Source: Eledone cirrhosa (lineage: Eukaryota). Taken from it: a stretch of 64,000 nucleotides of DNA. Position 1 is the first letter of the stretch. Each line of letters begins with the position of its first letter. Location: the NCBI GenBank assembly GCA_964016885.1, contig OZ024743.1, positions 104,904,001 to 104,968,000 on the forward strand. The letters run 5' to 3'. Below, piece after piece: positions 5,980 to 64,000 of this stretch. The translations under genes and the position numbers were made by a program. The notes under the pieces were generated by a model that was not told the origin of the DNA, did no database searches, and saw nothing but the letters and a program-made list of their open reading frames with translations.

Positions 5980-8400
<2,421 letters not shown>

Positions 8401-10710: not shown

Positions 10711-10854
10711 TTTCAACGTATTAAAACTTTGATCGAAATGTAAACGAATGTAGAATTATGTTCGCTATCACCGTTACGAATGGCTGTAGGCTGTTTATTG
10801 CTCATTGAAATTGCTAATTATTAGCATAGAACAACAGCGACTGTAAAAACAAAT

Positions 10855-13800
10855 ACAGTTGCAACAACAATAACAGCAACAACAACTACAGTTGCAACAA
10901 CAATAACAGCAACAACTACTACAGTTGCAACAACAATAACAGCAACAACAACTACAGTTGCAACAACAATAACAGCAACAACAACTACAGTTGCAACAAC
11001 AATAACAGCAACAACTACTACAGTTGCAACAATAATAACAGCAACAACTACTACAGTTGCAACAACAATAACAGCAACAACTACTACAGTTGCAACAACA
11101 ATAACAGCAACAACTACTACAGTTGCAACAACAATAACAGCAACAACTACTACAGTTGCAACAACAATAACAGCAACAACTACTACAGTTGCAACAACAA
11201 TAACAGGAACAACTACAGTTGCAACAACAATAACAGTAACAACTACTACAGTTGCAACAACAATAACAGCAACAACAACTACAGTTGCAACAACAATAAC
11301 AGCAACAACAACTACAGTTGCAACAACAATAACAGCAACAACTACTACAGTTGCAACAACAATAACAGCAACAACAACAACTACAGTTGCAACAACAATA
11401 ACAGCAACAACAACTACAGTTGCAACAACAATAACAGCAACAACAACTACAGTTGCAACAACAATAACAGCAACAACAACTACAGTTGCAACAACAATAA
11501 CAGCAACAACTACTACAGTTGCAACAACAATAACAGCAACAACAACTACAGTTGCAACAACAATAACAGCAACAACAACTACAGTTGCAACAACAATAAC
11601 AGCAACAACTACTACAGTTGCAACAACAATAACAGCAACAACAACTACAGTTGCAACAACAATAACAGCAACAACTACTACAGTTGCAACAACAATAACA
11701 GCAACAACTACTACAGTTGCAACAACAATAACAGCAACAACAACTACAGTTGCAACAACAATAACAGCAACAACAACTACAGTTGCAACAACAATAACAG
11801 CAACAACAACTACAGTTGCAACAACAATAACAGCAACAACTACTACAGTTGCAACAACAATAACAGCAACAACATCTACAGTTGCAACAACAATAACAGC
11901 AACAACTACTACAGTTGCAACAACAATAACAGCAACAACTACTACAGTTGCAACAACAATAACAGCAACAACTACTACAGTTGCAACAACAATAACAGCA
12001 ACAACAACTACAGTTGCAACAACAATAACAGCAACAACAACTACAGTTGCAACAACAATAACGGCAACAACAACTACAGTTGCAACAACAATAACAGCAA
12101 CAACTACTACAGTTGCAACAACAATAACAGCAACAACAAATACAGTTGCAACAACAATAACAGCAACAACTACTACAGTTGCAACAACAATAACAGCAAC
12201 AACTACTACAGTTGCAACAACAATAACAGCAACAACAACTACAGTTGCAACAACAATAACAGCAACAACAACTACAGTTGCAACAACAATAACAGCAACA
12301 ACAACTACAGTTTCAACAACAATAACAGCAACAACTACTACAGTTGCAACAACAATAACAGCAACAACAATTACAGTTGCAACAACAATAACAGCAACAA
12401 CAACTACAGTTGCAACAACAATAACAGCAACAACAACTACAGTTGCAACAACAATAACAGCAACAACTACTACAGTTGCAACAACAATAACAGCAACAAC
12501 AACTACAGTTGCAACAACAATAACAGCAACAACAACTACAGTTGCAACGACAATAACAGCAACAGCAACTACAGTTGCAACGACAATAACAGCAACAACA
12601 ACTACAGTTGCAACGACAATAACAGCAACAGCAACTACAGTTGCAACGACAATAACAGCAACAACTACTACAGTTGCAACAACAATAACAGCAACAACTA
12701 CTACAGTTGCAACAACAATAACAGCAACAACAACTACAGTTGCAACAACAATAACAGCAACAACTACTACAGTTGCAACAACAATAACAGCAACAACTAC
12801 TACAGTTGCAACAACAATAACAGCAACAACTACTACAGTTGCAACAACAATAACAGCAACAACTACTACAGTTGCAACAACAATAACAGCAACAACTACT
12901 ACAGTTGCAACAACAATAACAGCAACAACTACTACAGTTGCAACAACAATAACAGCAACAACAACTACAGTTGCAACAACAATAACAGCAACAACAACTA
13001 CAGTTGCAACAACAATAACAGCAACAACTACTACAGTTGCAACAACAATAACAGCAACAACAACTACAGTTGCAACAACAATAACAGCAACAACTACTAT
13101 AGTTGCAACAACAATAACAGCAACAACTACTACAGTTGCAACAACAATAACAGCAACAACAACTACAGTTGCAACAACAATAACAGCAACAACTACTACA
13201 GTTGCAACAACAATAACAGCAACAACTACTACAGTTGCAACAACAATAACAGCAACAACTACTACAGTTGCAACAACAATAACAGCAACAACAACTACAG
13301 TTGCAACAACAATAACAGCAACAACTACTACAGTTGCAACAACAATAACAGCAACAACAACTACAGTTGCAACAACAATAACATCAACAACAACTACAGT
13401 TGCAACAACAATAACAGCAACAACAACTACAGTTGCAACAACAATAACAGCAACAATAACTACAGTTGCAACAACAATAACAGCAACAACAACTACAGTT
13501 GCAACAACAATAACAGCAACAACTACAGTTGCAACAACAATAACAGCAACAACAACTACAGTTGCAACAACAATAACAGCAACAACAACTACAGTTGCAA
13601 CAACAATAACAGCAACAACAACTACAGTTGCAACAACAATAACAGCAACAACTACTACAGTTGCAACAACAATAACAGCAACAACAACTACAGTTGCAAC
13701 AACAATAACAGCAACAACAACTACAGTTGCAACAACAATAACAGCAACAACTACTACAGTTGCAACAACAATAACAGCAACAACTACTACAGTTGCAACA

Positions 13801-16127
13801 ACAATAACAGCAACAACAACTACAGTTGCAACAACAATAACAGCAACAACAACTACAGTTGCAACAACAATAACAGCAACAACAACTACAGTTGCAACAA
13901 CAATAACAGCAACAACAACTACAGTTGCAACAACAATAACAGCAACAACAACTACAGTTGCAACAACAATAACAGCAACAACAACTACAGTTGCAACAAC
14001 AATAACAGCAACAACAACTACAGTTGCAACAACAATAACAGCAACAACAACTACAGTTGCAACAACAATAACAGCAACAACAACTACAGTTGCAACAACA
14101 ATAACAGCAACAACTACTACAGTTGCAACAACAATAACAGCAACAACAACTACAGTTGCAACAACAATAACAGCAACAACAACTACAGTTGCAACAACAA
14201 TAACAGCAACAACTACTACAGTTGCAACAACAATAACAGCAACAACAACTACAGTTGCAACAACAATAACAGCAACAACAACTACAGTTGCAACAACAAT
14301 AACAGCAACAACTACTACAGTTGCAACAACAATAACAGCAACAACAACTACAGTTGCAACAACAACAACAGCAACAACAACTACAGTTGCAACAACAATA
14401 ACAGCAACAACTACTACAGTTGCAACAACAATAACAGCAACAACTACTACAGTTGCAACAACAATAACAGCAACAACAACTACAGTTGCAACAACAATAA
14501 CAGCAACAACAACTACAGTTGCAACAACAATAACAGCAACAACTACTACAGTTGCAACAACAATAACAGCAACAACAACTACAGTTGCATCAACAATAAC
14601 AGCAACAACAACTACAGTTGCAACAACAATAACAGCAACAACTACTACAGTTGCAACAACAATAACAGCAACAACTACTACAGTTGCAACAACAATAACA
14701 GCAACAACAACTACAGTTGAAACAACAATAACAGCAACAACAACTACAGTTGCAACAACAATAACAGTAACAACTACTACAGTTGCAACAACAATAACAG
14801 CAACAACAACTACAGTTGCAACAACAATAACAGCAACAACAACTACAGTTGCAACAACAATAACAGCAACAACTACTACAGTTGCAACAACAATAACAGC
14901 AACAACAACAACTACAGTTGCAACAACAATAACAGCAACAACAACTACAGTTGCAACAACAATAACAGCAACAACAACTACAGTTGCAACAACAATAACA
15001 GCAACAACAACTACAGTTGCAACAACAATAACAGCAACAACTACTACAGTTGCAACAACAATAACAGCAACAACAACTACAGTTGCAACAACAATAACAG
15101 CAACAACAACTACAGTTGCAACAACAATAACAGCAACAACTACTACAGTTGCAACAACAATAACAGCAACAACAACTACAGTTGCAACAACAATAACAGC
15201 AACAACAACTACAGTTGCAACAACAATAACAGCAACAACTACTACAGTTGCAACAACAATAACAGCAACAACTACTACAGTTGCAACAACAATAACAGCA
15301 ACAACAACTACAGTTGCAACAACAATAACAGCAACAACAACTACAGTTGCAACAACAATAACAGCAACAACAACTACAGTTGCAACAACAATAACAGCAA
15401 CAACTACTACAGTTGCAACAACAATAACAGCAACAACATCTACAGTTGCAACAACAATAACAGCAACAACAACTACAGTTGCAACAACAATAACAGCAAC
15501 AACTACTACAGTTGCAACAACAATAACAGCAACAACTACTACAGTTGCAACAACAATAACAGAAACAACTACTACAGTTGCAACAACAATAACAGCAACA
15601 ACAACTACAGTTGCAACAACAATAACAGCAACAACAACTACAGTTGCAACAACAATAACAGCAACAACTACTACAGTTGCAACAACAATAACAGCATCAA
15701 CAACTACAGTTGCAACAACAATAACAGCAACAACAACTACAGTTGCAACAACAATAACAGCAACAACTACTACAGTTGCAACAACAATAACAGCAACAAC
15801 AACTACAGTTGCAACAACAATAACAGCAACAACAACTACAGTTGCAACAACAATAACAGCAACAACTACTACAGTTGCAACAACAATAACAGCAACAACT
15901 ACTACAGTTGCAACAACAATAACAGCAACAACAACTACAGTTGCAACAACAATAACAGCAACAACTACTACAGTTGCAACAACAATAACAGCAACAACTA
16001 CTACAGTTGCAACAACAATAACAGCAACAACAACTACAGTTGCAACAACAATAACATCAACAACAACTACATTTGCAACAACAATAACAGCAACAACTTC
16101 TACAGTTGCAACAACAATAACAGCAAC
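10855..16127. repeat. Tandem array of a 33-bp unit ACAGTTGCAACAACAATAACAGCAACAAC(A/T)ACT, ~160 copies
   Basis: ACAGTT recurs every 33 bp (10855, 10888, 10921...); two main variants; occasional 30- or 36-bp units. Confidence 0.97.
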
Positions 16128-16145
16128 ACCACCACGACCACCACC

Positions 16146-16899: not shown

Positions 16900-17591
16900 A
16901 GGTTTAGGGTTAGTGTTAGGTTTAGGTTTAGAGTTAGAGATTGGGTTTGGTGTTAGAGTTAGTGTTAGATTTAGGTTTAGGGCTAGAGATTGGGTTTGGT
17001 GTTAGGGTTAGTGTGAGGTTTAGGGTTAGATATTGGGTTTGGTGTTACGGTTAGTGTTAGGTTTAGGTATAGGGTTAGAGATTGGGTTTGGTGTTAGAGT
17101 TAGTGTTAGGTTTAGGTTTAGGTTTATGGTTAGAGATTGGGTTTGGTGTTAGGGTTAGTGTGAGGTTTAGGGTTAGATATTGGGTTTGGTGTTACGGTTA
17201 GTGTTAGGTTTAGGTTTAGGGTTAGTGTGTGGTTTGGTGTTAGTGTTAGGTTTAGGTTTAGGTTTAGGTTTAGGGTTAGAGATTGGGTTTGGTGTTAGGG
17301 TTAGTGTGAGGTTTAGGGTTAGATATTGGGTTTGGTGTTACGGTTAGTGTTAGGTTTAGGTTTAGGGTTAGAGATTGGGTTTAGTGTTAGAGTTAGTGTT
17401 AGGTTTAGGTTTAGGGTTAGTGTGAGGTTTGGTGTTAGGGTTAGTGTTAGGTTTAAGTTCAGGGTTAGCGATTGGGTTTGATGTTAGAGTTAGTGTTAGG
17501 TTTAAGTTTAGGGTTAGCGATTGGGTTTGGTGTTAGAGTTAGTGTTAGGTTTAGGTTTAGGGCTAGAAATTGCGTTTGGTGTTAGAGTTAG
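16900..17591 (+). repeat. Telomere-like (TTAGGG-derived) degenerate hexamer minisatellite
   Basis: Hexamers TTAGGG/TTAGGT/TTAGTG/TTAGAG/TTGGGT/TTGGTG in ~42-48 bp higher-order blocks. Confidence 0.85.
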
Positions 17592-42604: not shown

Positions 42605-42742
<138 letters not shown>

Positions 42743-42759
42743 TATATATAGAGAGAGAA

Positions 42760-46700: not shown

Positions 46701-46807
<107 letters not shown>

Positions 46808-52027: not shown

Positions 52028-52961
<934 letters not shown>

Positions 52962-58033: not shown

Positions 58034-59605
58034 TGTATGTATGTATGTATGTATGTATGTATGTATCCAATGATGTTAACTTGTTCTTCTTTTTGGTAAA
58101 TATCATCTTGGTTAAGAGAGTGGGACTGGCTTTGTGCAGTGCCTTTGCTCACTATAAAAGCTTCACGGCACAGGCATTGCCTTATATCTGGAGATCTCTC
58201 TGCACTTGTCGTCACATGGTACCATGGACCCAGCACTATGTGTCAGTAATTGTCACAAGTGTAGTGTTTGTACCAGAGTTTTCAAGTCGCTGGCTGGACT
58301 AAAAAGTCACTCGTTCAGCGCATCGGTAGGGGTTCTCCTACATGGATATAAAGTAGTGACCATACTCGAAAACGAGTTGGCAGCCACCATGTATGTATGT
58401 ATCTATATATGTATGTATGTGTGTCAACCCGTCAAAGGGCGGAGGAACTCAGGAGTGTCAACGGCCGTCCAATAAAGTTTATTTTTTTTATTTGTGGAGT
58501 GAGAGACTCCTATTATTTATTAAGACATCTCTCTAGGAGAAAGTCACTCTCATCTAACATCGGCGAGTTCATTTGCATCCAACTATGTAGGCCAGTTCTT
58601 CTTTTTGTGCAATTGCGTTCGATGCTCTGAGAGTGGGCTTGGCCCTGTGCAAAGCTTCAAGCACAGGAATCACTTGATATGTGACATGTTTTGCGATGCA
58701 GGGTATAGCTGGCTATAGGCAAGACTCTACCAGGACTAAAAAGTGACGTCCGTGATACTCATGCTTAAGTATCAAGCGATGGCATTACTCGAAATCTTTA
58801 CCATCATGTGATCGCTGGAGTGACTTCAAGCCATCATTCGAAGGGCACACCTTAGGGAACACAGTGCATTTGACACCAACGCTGGATAAGATTCATCGTT
58901 ATTATGTATGTATGTATGTATGTATGTATGTATGTATGTATGTATGTATGTATGTATGTATGTATGTATGTATGTATGTATGTATGTCAGGTCACCAGTT
59001 GGTGCTACTGGTAACATGTATCCCAGTACAACCTGTCTCATGGTCGGGTCGTTGGCGACTAAACTGGCAACCCCACCAAGGTTTCTTGGTGAGGAGGGTG
59101 ACTTTGGACATCCTGCAGGACTAAAAACACAACCTGTCAAAGGGCAAATGAGCTCTTAAGAGTCAATGGTCATCAAAAATCATCGGGAGAGATGACCCCT
59201 TAGCCTTTGTCAAGGCAGAATTCTAGGAGAAGGAAAACTCTGATATAATACCTGCCACCCTGATGGTATCCAATGATGTTGACTTGTTCTTCTTTTTGGT
59301 AAATATCATCTTGGTTAAGAGAGTGGGACTGGCTTTGTCCAGTGCCTTTGCTCACTATAAAAGCTTCACGGCACAGGCATTGCTTTATATCTGGAGATCT
59401 CTCTGCACTTGTCGTCACATGGTACCATGGGCCCAGCATTATGTGTCAATGATTGTCACAAGTGTAGTGTTTGTACCAGAGTTTTCAAGTCGCTGGCTGG
59501 ACTAAAAAGTCACACTCGTTCAGCGCATCGGTAGGGGTTCTCCTACATGGATATAAAGTAGTGGCCGTACTCGAAAACGAGTTGGCAACCACCATGTATG
59601 TATGT
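57670..59605 (+). mobile_element. Cluster of non-autonomous RTE-derived retroposons separated by (ATGT)n tails
   Basis: RTE-5'UTR-like TCTAGGAGAAGGAAAACTC joined to a C2H2 remnant CSVCTRVFKSLAGLKSH and 3' GGCCGTACTCGAAAACGAG..(ATGT)n; copies at ~57670, 58065, 58425 and 58990. Confidence 0.75.
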
Positions 59606-60167
59606 ATATAATAATGTGTAAATATCTGCTTGCTTGAGTGTGTCTCTGTGTGATTGTAGTGGGTAGAATCCAACCTTATGTTTGGGTGACAAGTATTATG
59701 CTGTGGTTCTCTTGAAGTTGTATATATTTCGACATATGTAAACATACAGCAAAAGAAATTTACACTCCAGCGGCCACCTTTCAATCGATATTACCTTCAT
59801 GTTCTGCTGTGCACCAATCACCAAGAAGATCTTACACTATTAGACTATGTCTTTAGACACTTGACATAAATGAGTGTTGTTTATATCAAGATTAAAACAT
59901 ATATTGTAAATTACAGTAGATTTGAAAATGTATGTAAAAAAATCACCAAATAAACAAACCCAAATCGAGAAGAAACAAACAAGCAAGAGTAAAATAAAAG
60001 TATTAAGTCATTCCTAATCAAGGAAGCTATAATTTAGAGTTACCAGCTAGAGAAAATAAGCACAAAAAAATTCGGGTAAGTTTTAGAGAACGATAAAAGA
60101 TGTTATCTAAGACTATTTACTATTAGCAACATAAGCATATCAAAAGAAGTTAGTGTAATATTTATGA

Positions 60168-60725
<558 letters not shown>

Positions 60726-61821
60726 GAGAAGAAAGAAGAATACTGCGTGGTTGCACATGGGTTACATATGATAAAAATAGTCCTTCGTCAGTGATTTTCC
60801 AACCATCATTGGTATTTCATCGCATTAAAAATCATATACCTCAGGTTGGTGCGAGCAATAACTAAAAAAAGTTATTGGGACCAGTAAATCGCTTAAAGCG
60901 AGGGAGACAAGTGAACAACATAGAAGGATAAAAGCAAACCAAAGAAAGGAAATAAACAAGCAACATGGTTGTCCTGGTCAGCATAAGCTGGGTGGATTTC
61001 ATGAGCGAAAGGTACAGACGTCCGACGTGAGTGAGATGTAAGCAAGAAGAGACCCACTGTAAGCCAAACGGGAGGAAGTGAGAAGGGAACGGACGAAGTG
61101 TGTGCTCTTGGGTTCTTCATCCGTTCCCTTGTGAGTACCAATTCACTCCCACCGCCTGCGCAGGAGCAGGTCCCAAGGAAGTTGACCATTAGCTACCACA
61201 GATTTCAACGAAATTCGCTTAGTCAGTTCCCCCTCTCAACCAAACAATGACCCATTCAGGCCTGTTATATATAGCTTACTGCTACCTACCCCGTCTGTGG
61301 CAGTCAGTCGAAAGCCAGTGGGCATGGGAGAGTGTGAGTATCTATAGGTTTCAATACTACCCCTCATTAAGCATGGACAGTAGAATTGACCATCAACCTC
61401 TAAGAGAAAATATACTTAATTCTAGATATCATGGTTTCACAGTGGAAGTTATGAATGAGAGTTGGAAATTAGAACTAAAAATTAAAAATTAAAAATTAAA
61501 AATCGAAAATCAGAAATCAAAAGAATTTTTAAGTGAGAATCTAGATTGAGGTGAGTAAAAAAATATAGATTGAAGTGAGTAAATAATATATGCACCTATA
61601 CTATAAGTTTTGAAAGGGGTATTAATGTTACAGTTATATTATCTACATACTGAACGATAGTACCGTACAGTAGAACGGAGGGTAAATTACAGTATGAAAG
61701 GTAGTAGTTAGTCGGGTACACAGTTGGAATTTCCATCACATGGAACAAAACCCACAAAACATATAAAGTATACAAAAGAAAAAAACTAATAAATGCAAAA
61801 AACACATACAGTACATATATG

Positions 61822-61866
<45 letters not shown>

Positions 61867-62032
61867 TAGTATATCTACCAACATATGTATACAGATGTAT
61901 ACCCATGCTAGCAAATATAGATGTTATGTCTTAGTACCTTTGTGGTTCTATGCAGGGGGATGCAGAACAATTATATGAAAGACGTAAAATAAGAAAATTT
62001 TAAAAATTAAAAATTAACTTACTAAAATTTTC

Positions 62033-62114
62033 ACTCCAACTAATTAGTTTCTGTAAGGGAATAAATATAGTTACATAATGTAACTACAGAGAATTCCTTA
62101 CTTCATCAGGGAGT
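62033..62114 (-). ncRNA. Type I HHR (family M); second copy 62572-62650 is cut within stem I
   Basis: Reverse complement of the 63206-63287 fold. Confidence 0.8.
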
Positions 62115-63205
62115 CTATTCTCAGCTAAGTTCCCAGGCAATGCGCGGACACTAGGAACCCATATAAAAATAATAATTCAGTGGATGGAATAAAGCTAGCG
62201 GGGACTAAATTCCAGAGCACTGAAAAAAATTCACTGCCTACTGGGTCAGTGGCAAATTCTAAAGAATCAATCACGTGACACTGAGGTCAATCAGTGAGGA
62301 GTGGGTTGGTATTATGACAAGTGCCTACTACTACTACCATGAACCATGGCAGTAAATTTTGGCAAGTTTTACTCAACAAATAATTTGGAGATAAATATAG
62401 AGAATTAGTATATCTACCAAAATATGTATACAGATGTATACCCATGCTAGCAAATATATATGTTATGTCTTAGTACCTTTGTGGTTCTATGCAGGGGGAT
62501 GCAGAACAATTATATGAAAGACGTAAAATAAGAACATTTTAAAAATTAAAAATTAACTTACTAAAATTTTCACTCCAACTAATTAGTTTCTGTAAGGGAG
62601 TAAATATAGTTACGTAATGTAACTACAGAGAATTCCTTACTTCATCAGGGATGAATCAATCACGTGACACTGATTGACCTCAGTGTCACGTGATTGATTC
62701 TTTAGAATTTGCCACTTACCCAGTAGGCAGTGAATTTTTTTCAATGCTCTGGAATTTAGTCCCGCTAGCTTTATTCCATCCACAAATTTTCTTATTTTAC
62801 GTCTTTCATATAATTGTTCTGCATCCCCCTGCATAGAACCACAAAGGTACTAAAACATAACATATATATTTGCTAGCATGGGTATACATCTGTATACATA
62901 TGTTGGTAGATATACTAATTCTCTATATTTATCTCCAAATTATTTGTTGAGTATAACTTGCCAAAATTTACTGCCATGGTTCATGGTAGTAGTAGGCACT
63001 TGTCATAATACCAACCCACTCCTCACTGATTGACCTCAGTGTCACGTGATTGATTCTTTAGAATTTACCACTGACCCAGTAGGCAGTGAATTTTTTTCAG
63101 TGCTCTGGAATTTAGTCCTCGCTAGCTTTATTCCATCCACTGAATTATTATTTTTATATGGGTTCCTAGTGTCCGCGCATTGCCTGGAAACTTAGCTGAG
63201 AATAG

Positions 63206-63287
63206 ACTCCCTGATGAAGTAAGGAATTCTCTATAGTTACATTACGTAACTATATTTACTCCCTTACAGAAACTAATTAGTTGGAGT
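63206..63287 (+). ncRNA. Type I HHR with long stem II (family M)
   Basis: ACTCC-CTGATGA-AGTAAGG..ATAGTTAC ATTAC GTAACTAT..CCTTACA-GAAA-CTAATTA-GTT-GGAGT; palindromic AACTAATTAGTT stem III. Confidence 0.82.
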
Positions 63288-63933
63288 GGAAATTTGAGTA
63301 AGTAAGTTAATTTTTAATTTTTAAAATTTCCTTATTTTACGTCTTTCATATATATATATACATACGTGCGCGTACCTTTACCTTCACATGCACACACATA
63401 TATCTGTATATATATAAAATTAAGTATGCGTGTGTGTGTGTCTGTGTATTACCTATAGGGGCCTACATCTTACGACCGATTTTCATGAATCTTTACAGGC
63501 TCATAGATTAGTCATCGGGAAGTGTTTTCTGTATATCAGCGTATCGTTTTGTTTTATTCCGGGGTCATTAAATATTCAAGAATAAGTCAACCAAATACAC
63601 AAAATCTTAGTTAAAACAAATTAAAGGGAAGTAAATCTTGATACCTAAGAAGCAGGACAGAAGGAATTATTTCCCGTTGATAGTTACTCTAATCGGTTAA
63701 AACAATTGCCACACAATGACAAATGACTTCTTGGTCGCTCTACCAGCTAAAAATACATTGAACAAAATATTTAAGTAAAATCATCTTGAGAAACATCAAC
63801 ACCATTCTATCATGAGACGCTACTAATGAAAAAGAACGAATGTAGGAGAAATCGTCAATCCATATAAACTTTCACCGTTAACTCAGCAGACGACATTACT
63901 TAATATCTACACTCCTACATCGATCTGTATGTT

Positions 63934-64000
<67 letters not shown>

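Follow-up and report, generated by a model that had tools for sequence, protein, structure and literature searches.

Metazoan non-LTR retrozymes are described as non-coding, low-GC tandem units that carry one type I hammerhead ribozyme (HHR) motif each and co-occur with Penelope-like elements (PLEs) (PMC7229834; 10.64898/2026.07.22.740005). An integration cycle with a circular RNA as template has been proposed for them (PMC7229834), and the 2026 survey already argues that animal retrozymes are non-autonomous PLE derivatives; its units range from 51 to 972 bp, and 8 of 9 predicted Xenopus elements failed to cleave (10.64898/2026.07.22.740005). EN+ PLEs of the Neptune/Nematis type, as presented in PMC8557442 and PMC3846280, insert into microsatellites as partial tandems with an inverted, 5'-truncated head-to-head copy, and show junction palindromes, an HHR upstream of the 3' end and a tail at one end only, a known PLE trait that is described there qualitatively and measures 30-40 nt. 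A C-x4-C-x2-C motif before the endonuclease is the mark of Neptune/Nematis, and non-autonomous Chlamys elements such as MRC1 have pLTRs, head-to-tail multicopy insertions and a 3' end that generally resembles an autonomous family, in a clade without canonical HHRs (PMC8557442). In the PAc Poseidon in vitro system the lizard PLE protein, modelled as a dimer, extends both strands from two internal RNA start sites whose spacing equals the tail; these sites are adjacent, without homology to the cut DNA and the same for the top and the bottom strand, and uncleaved RNA can be used as template (PMC11167929).

The locus studied here lies in a window of 64,000 nucleotides (the whole stretch of Eledone cirrhosa DNA that was analysed, to which all positions refer) and is one copy of an abundant ORF-less type I HHR repeat family. 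The family shares with metazoan non-LTR retrozymes the tandem units of low GC content, which lack coding sequence and have a single type I HHR apiece, the presence of PLEs in the same genome and a unit length within the range of the 2026 survey, and with axolotl retrozyme families (PMC7229834) a stem III that is weak and palindromic as well as a mismatched pair at the stem II base. It departs from the retrozymes of the 2020 study (PMC7229834) in a unit that exceeds their tested RNAs of 170-400 nt and in a stem II of about 50 nt, and from metazoan non-LTR retrozymes in being mostly dispersed as two-arm insertions of 1-2 units in (TA)n, with an anatomy that points to linear templates. All the traits listed above for EN+ PLEs recur in it, whereas it has no ORF and its tail is longer (about 120 nt); with the Chlamys elements it has non-autonomy, pLTRs and head-to-tail multicopy insertions in common, and no cognate autonomous family was found for the unit in that no sequence was shared with 68 PLE loci. 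The family is best read as a non-autonomous PLE, that is, as a non-LTR retrozyme and hence a known kind, an assignment that follows the sequence criteria. The class and its link to PLEs are already in print; the new part is the quantified strict two-site, two-strand rule described below, and in the accessible open-access literature we found neither a quantification of such strict pairing of ends nor a coupled-priming model.

The order of elements at the locus is (TA)n, a minus arm running from 62651 to 61863, a junction (62653-62783), a plus arm (62784-63352) and again (TA)n. A scan of positions 61000-64000 for HHR cores yielded CTGATGA on the minus strand at 62109 and 62648, 539 bp apart, and a third core on the plus strand at 63211, the spacing and the third HHR agreeing with the preliminary description; minus-strand copies of CTTCATCAGG start at 62101 and 62640. 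We number the unit m1-539 from predicted cut to predicted cut (62576 to 62038, minus strand), and the predicted fold of this 539-nt monomer (62038-62576) is more stable than those of 100/100 shuffles (z -5.2). The minus arm (61863-62651) comprises about 1.5 units (m465-539, m1-539 and m1-~176), and its 3' end, at the distal site B, abuts a (TA)n target tract (61824-61862). The plus arm (62784-63352) comprises m38-539 and m1-66, with its 5' end 38 nt past a predicted cut site and its 3' end at the proximal site A (TTTCATATA), next to a second (TA)n target tract (63353-63360). Both outer ends are 3' ends. The inverted copy noticed earlier is present, with the correction that the arms stand head-to-head and that their junction holds a 48-bp palindrome (62653-62700), a local fold-back in m281-313, and an extra templated piece on the plus strand (62668-62783, m281-~396).

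HHR1 (62033-62114, minus strand) is of type I with a 5-bp stem I, its core at 62109 and its predicted cut after GUU between 62038 and 62037; HHR3 (63206-63287, plus strand), also of type I, has its core at 63211 and its predicted cut between 63282 and 63283. Of the two tandem HHRs noted earlier on the minus strand, HHR1 is full and the upstream HHR2 (62572-62651, predicted cut between 62577 and 62576) is damaged: the 5' truncation at 62651 that cuts off this motif (at 62640) leaves a 3-bp stem I, 3/5 of the base pairs. Stem III (AACTAATTAGTT) is fully palindromic and stem II is long (about 50 nt with an internal loop), both in agreement with what had been noted before. By itself stem III forms no hairpin; its homodimer is predicted at -10.8 kcal/mol, and dimeric cleavage through a palindromic stem III has been described for axolotl HHRs (PMC7229834). 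Since an Rfam scan of the window gave no family at gathering thresholds, the identification of the HHR rests on core motif and structure. In 38 diverse copies 93.8% of the cells pair, and 45 cells carry two-sided changes, compared with 10.5 in shuffles, every one of them in stem II; these copies are related and were chosen by their stem III motif, which is therefore invariant, so that the test speaks for stem II only. The core is intact in 236/289 family copies, and at the base of stem II the HHRs of the window have A.A as against C.A in 199/210 family copies. Each unit thus has a type I motif with core, three stems and a covarying stem II. Tandem HHRs occur in the family in 28/111 insertions with two complete HHRs in one arm and in arrays of 7-9 units, the upstream HHR at the window locus being truncated; only these 28 insertions could release a cut-to-cut monomer.

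A 22-nt motif made of stem III and cut site has 9,169 exact matches in the 3.0-Gb genome and its reversed control has none, so that the HHR family does not arise by chance; a longer motif typical of younger copies has 1,327. The family is put at 520-570 bp per unit, the units parsed measure about 507-559 bp, and identity to the window copy varies from 75 to 100% across subfamilies. The 234 loci retrieved were resolved into 172 separate insertions, a sample out of several thousand, of which 111 were taken in position order on one chromosome and the remainder as best matches or picks by B-site pattern (30 loci as best full-length matches, 60 as B-site patterns). The earlier view that the unit has no credible ORF is borne out: the longest ATG frame of a monomer measures 43 aa in the median and 86 aa at most, and no match to a PLE protein was found inside the units, which have no protein-coding capacity. 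A 53-aa frame of the window copy was rejected as a real ORF, being kept in only 20/107 full monomers. Two further tandem families with a type I HHR motif were seen, one of about 490 bp with an inverted head (L071:7679-9901) and one of 459 bp with a long stem II (L062:6610-7519); the genome therefore holds several retrozyme-like families.

We think it probable that the unit is a non-autonomous PLE in (TA)n that is copied by a borrowed RT-endonuclease of Neptune/Nematis type, which primes both cut strands on mostly linear RNA. A promoter inside the unit, near m281-313, would give transcripts of about 1.5 units, only part of which would be cut by the HHR, so that templates would begin at the cut site or farther upstream. 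The PLE protein, probably as a dimer, would cut both strands of (TA)n; one target 3' end would then prime at site A and the other at site B, each through pairing of a few bases at TATA. The two cDNAs would be truncated and joined head-to-head by short overlaps, fold-backs or template jumps, and long arrays would grow later by local duplication. In this respect the family serves as a natural experiment on a large scale, bearing on the origin of inverted repeats and tails in PLEs and on which template retrozymes use.

The template is where the classical retrozyme cycle has to be considered, in which both HHRs cut, the 539-nt monomer is circularised and the PLE RT copies round the circle into tandem arms. 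The intact cores, the covarying stem II and the highly structured predicted monomer fit such a cycle, retrozymes of coral, mussel and axolotl have been shown to form circles (PMC7229834), and 224/265 arms cross a predicted cut site, which excludes a fully cut linear monomer as template. The 5' ends of the arms speak against it. In m1-54 end 31/109 first-lap arms, whether A or B, compared with 59/860 (6.9%) per 54 nt in m55-378, and in the position-ordered subset the ratio is 17/58 to 45/511; a similar pile-up could result if the RT paused at a ligation junction, and m1-54, which is A/T-rich and self-complementary, could by itself favour joining. Termination depends on the lap, though, with 19/154 ends in m1-54 at first passage and then the 31/109, and 56/224 (25%) in m379-539 in lap 1 and then 49/78 (63%) in lap 2, and both effects hold in the position-ordered subset. 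No excess of 5' ends was found in B arms where one turn of a circle would finish (4/65). The 7- and 9-unit arrays (L079, L080) contain shared variants with periods of 2 and 3 units; their units are not equal, a rolling-circle origin is rejected by this periodicity, and they look locally duplicated. The scarcity of arms with two complete HHRs also tells against the cycle.

Taken with the position of the 3' ends, which are not at the cut but 66 and about 180 nt beyond it, these observations weaken the proposal of the preliminary description that a 539-nt monomer or circle is the transposition intermediate, and we regard the circle cycle as unlikely. Circles may still form and seed a minority of insertions; longer templates, possibly circles, must arise, because 29/224 arms extend past m379 in lap 2. 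Reads across GUU|GGAGU, which had been suggested as a mark of circular RNA, would not be diagnostic, as this is genomic sequence too. The truncation pattern fits linear, partly cleaved RNAs of about 1.5 units, begun at the cut site or near m380-460, better than a circle. Upstream of this start zone, m281-313 (62264-62296 on the minus strand) contains GTCACGTGA, which we take to be E-box-like, together with CAAT-like words in 90/107 monomers; it may act as an internal promoter, and related words occur in the pLTRs of PLE families A and D. The anatomy of the copies calls the circle-as-template model into question, and, if the wider idea of coupled integration set out below is true, animal retrozymes would spread mainly through linear, partly cut RNAs and not through circles.

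That the unit is copied in trans by a PLE RT, as had been suggested, is most likely, given ORF-less units and an insertion anatomy of PLE type. PLEs with RT and GIY-YIG domains are plentiful, with about 10,600 GIY-YIG candidates in the genome and domains confirmed for five, and families A-E have the C-x4-C-x2-C motif before the endonuclease. The other possibility raised before, by which the unit is no more than the pLTR of an autonomous PLE, was not supported: with flanks of about 1.5-3 kb and 15 PLE proteins of the same genome as queries, 0/172 insertions join an ORF of their own. A PLE ORF remnant lies nearby in 16/172 loci, every one from another family, and no pLTR shared with the unit was found in 68 PLE loci of the about 10,600 candidates, the 107 full monomers having nothing in common with these loci apart from three cases in which the unit had itself inserted next to them. 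A variant in which the autonomous PLE lies outside the sample and the copies are truncated would agree with the match of the anatomy to PLE ends and with the extent of sampling (172 of several thousand insertions, 68 of about 10,600 candidates). It is nevertheless quite improbable, since the unit closes on itself with a full cut-to-cut lap without ORF in 39/111 insertions and since same-strand motif matches 2-6 kb apart are absent among the matches listed (two sets of 100, by eye); by contrast, family C has a 4.2-kb spacing at least 5 times among the matches listed (100, by eye). Matches of 70-75% between unit and PLE loci were discarded as TA microsatellite noise, and a stretch of 21 nt that matched the pLTR of family D (E 0.16) was left out of account.

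Three chimeras were found, one with the 3' end of family D as the opposite arm (L015) and two in which the unit immediately follows, in like orientation, the ORF and 3' region of family D (L133) or family A (L241). They hint at a machinery common with families D and A, and could also be nested insertions with target deletion. In the 3' regions of families A, D and E (L061, L066, L067, L073, L078, L032, L045) there is no canonical CUGANGA core within 1.3 kb past the ORF. The same regions contain a hammerhead-like motif with U3.A8 replacing C3.G8 (TTGAAAA or TTGATAA, a short stem II, GGAA/GCAA/GAAA and CCGGTA); its family D version has 3,708 exact matches and is a putative high-copy core-variant ribozyme. 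At L107:2425-2865 the 3' ends of families F and C meet head-to-head, which suggests that one insertion can use two different RNAs. Pairs of family C motifs 152-153 bp apart recur at L327, L365, L366, L370 and L372 as a fixed short inverted form, perhaps a miniature non-autonomous family.

The 3' ends lie at m66 (site A, 66 nt past the predicted cut) or at m178-189 (site B, about 180 nt past it), both sites contain TATA, and among the first 121 insertions 188/189 A or B ends abut a microsatellite. Head-to-head two-arm insertions, with a partial tandem and an inverted 5'-truncated copy, make up 119/172; 99 of these are A+B, none A+A and none B+B, while in the other 20 at least one of the two outer ends falls at another position. 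Independent choice of ends would predict A+B in about half, and in the position-ordered subset from one chromosome the pairing is 58/58. A tail at one end only, of about 120 nt, is seen in all 99 scorable insertions. Compared with the PAc Poseidon system, which likewise has two internal start sites with a spacing equal to the tail and whose extension of both strands and use of uncleaved RNA match the priming proposed here, the start sites of the family lie 120 nt from each other, contain TATA and serve once each per insertion, whereas those of PAc Poseidon are adjacent and not strand-specific (PMC11167929). Between the two sites lies a long conserved hairpin, m119-168 (62409-62458 and, as a second copy, 61870-61919, minus strand), in which two pairs are changed on both sides among 28 copies and many changes are to G-U; it is a putative RT-binding or positioning element. 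The autonomous PLE families C and D keep the same (TA)n target and an end rule of A/B type in 32/33 scorable cases (pairs picked and read by eye): 19/19 among 24 loci of family C and 13/14 in family D, where the exception has arms 4.3 kb apart whose haplotypes differ.

Where the internal B site has (CT)2, at least 4 CT units stand at the terminal B end of that insertion in 31/43. This expansion is unrelated to divergence (rho -0.13), exact matches genome-wide amount to 245 for expanded and 237 for internal forms, and the distal end of family C shows the same expansion. An origin from the target is disfavoured, as the opposite flank has (CT)n in 4/39. Slippage at RT initiation is the likely source and later microsatellite expansion an alternative; slippage is known at the 3' tails of LINEs. 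On the wider idea of coupled integration set out below, telomerase-like slippage at the distal start site would write new (CT)n beside (TA)n. Compound (CT)n(TA)n microsatellites are common in the window (6232-6347, 42608-42750, 46705-46805); terminal B ends make the same pattern, and some of these tracts may be remnants of PLE ends.

The two arms of an insertion share a haplotype and probably come from the same source. In 63 younger insertions 58/1,209 comparisons at segregating sites differ between the arms (4.8%), as against 33% between insertions, and in 52 two-arm insertions rare variants common to both arms reach 2.4 per 1,000 sites, about 20 times the 0.12 of cross pairs. Gene conversion could also lead to shared alleles. 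The A arm is nested within the B arm in 43 of 99 insertions and the B arm within the A arm in 22; in 34 neither holds (32 with a 40-nt margin). An extra junction piece occurs in 12/119 two-arm insertions. Copying of the junction from the source locus was rejected, as 118 distinct pairs of junction coordinates were found in 119 insertions, with one apparent repeat. Self-priming has been proposed for inverted Penelope structures (PMC3846280). Under single priming with fold-back the first cDNA would serve as DNA template for the second arm, whose synthesis would halt at the following TATA site; this would agree with the junction palindromes and extra pieces, with the common haplotypes and with the geometry of the 65/99 nested insertions. 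It is the least probable reading, being contradicted for the third of insertions (34/99) in which each arm holds sequence absent from the other; moreover, A+A was found in 0/99, although long A arms that fold back would be expected to end frequently at the following A site.

From these un-nested arms it follows that both strands are likely primed on RNA. Together with the shared haplotypes and the behaviour of the lizard PLE protein (PMC11167929), they lead us to infer coupled priming from both strands, in keeping with the preferred reading of a borrowed RT-endonuclease on mostly linear RNA. PLE integration in general might then be a coupled two-sided reaction, in which an RT-endonuclease dimer opens (TA)n on both strands and obligatorily uses two non-equivalent start sites of one source RNA, one per strand; we hold this wider idea to be evenly balanced. 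If true, the coupling rule would account for two features noted long ago, the inverted pLTR and the tail on one side. The rule of one A and one B end, the pairs of arms in which neither copies the other and the 5' ends linked to the cut site translate into precise predictions for the in vitro PLE system already available.

The window contains other repeats. Beside the locus a further repeat begins at a (TA)n tract (60720-61300), and its first bases recur beside L027. A tandem array of 160 units of 33 bp with 97% matches (10848-16128) has an in-frame length and is possibly coding; it is followed by degenerate TTAGGG-like repeats (16900-17591). A 323-bp tandem repeat of 2.3 units (52028-52771) finishes beside (TA)n, and two copies of a repeat of about 360 bp lie 1.2 kb apart (58063-58423 and 59266-59628) amid (TATG)n tracts.
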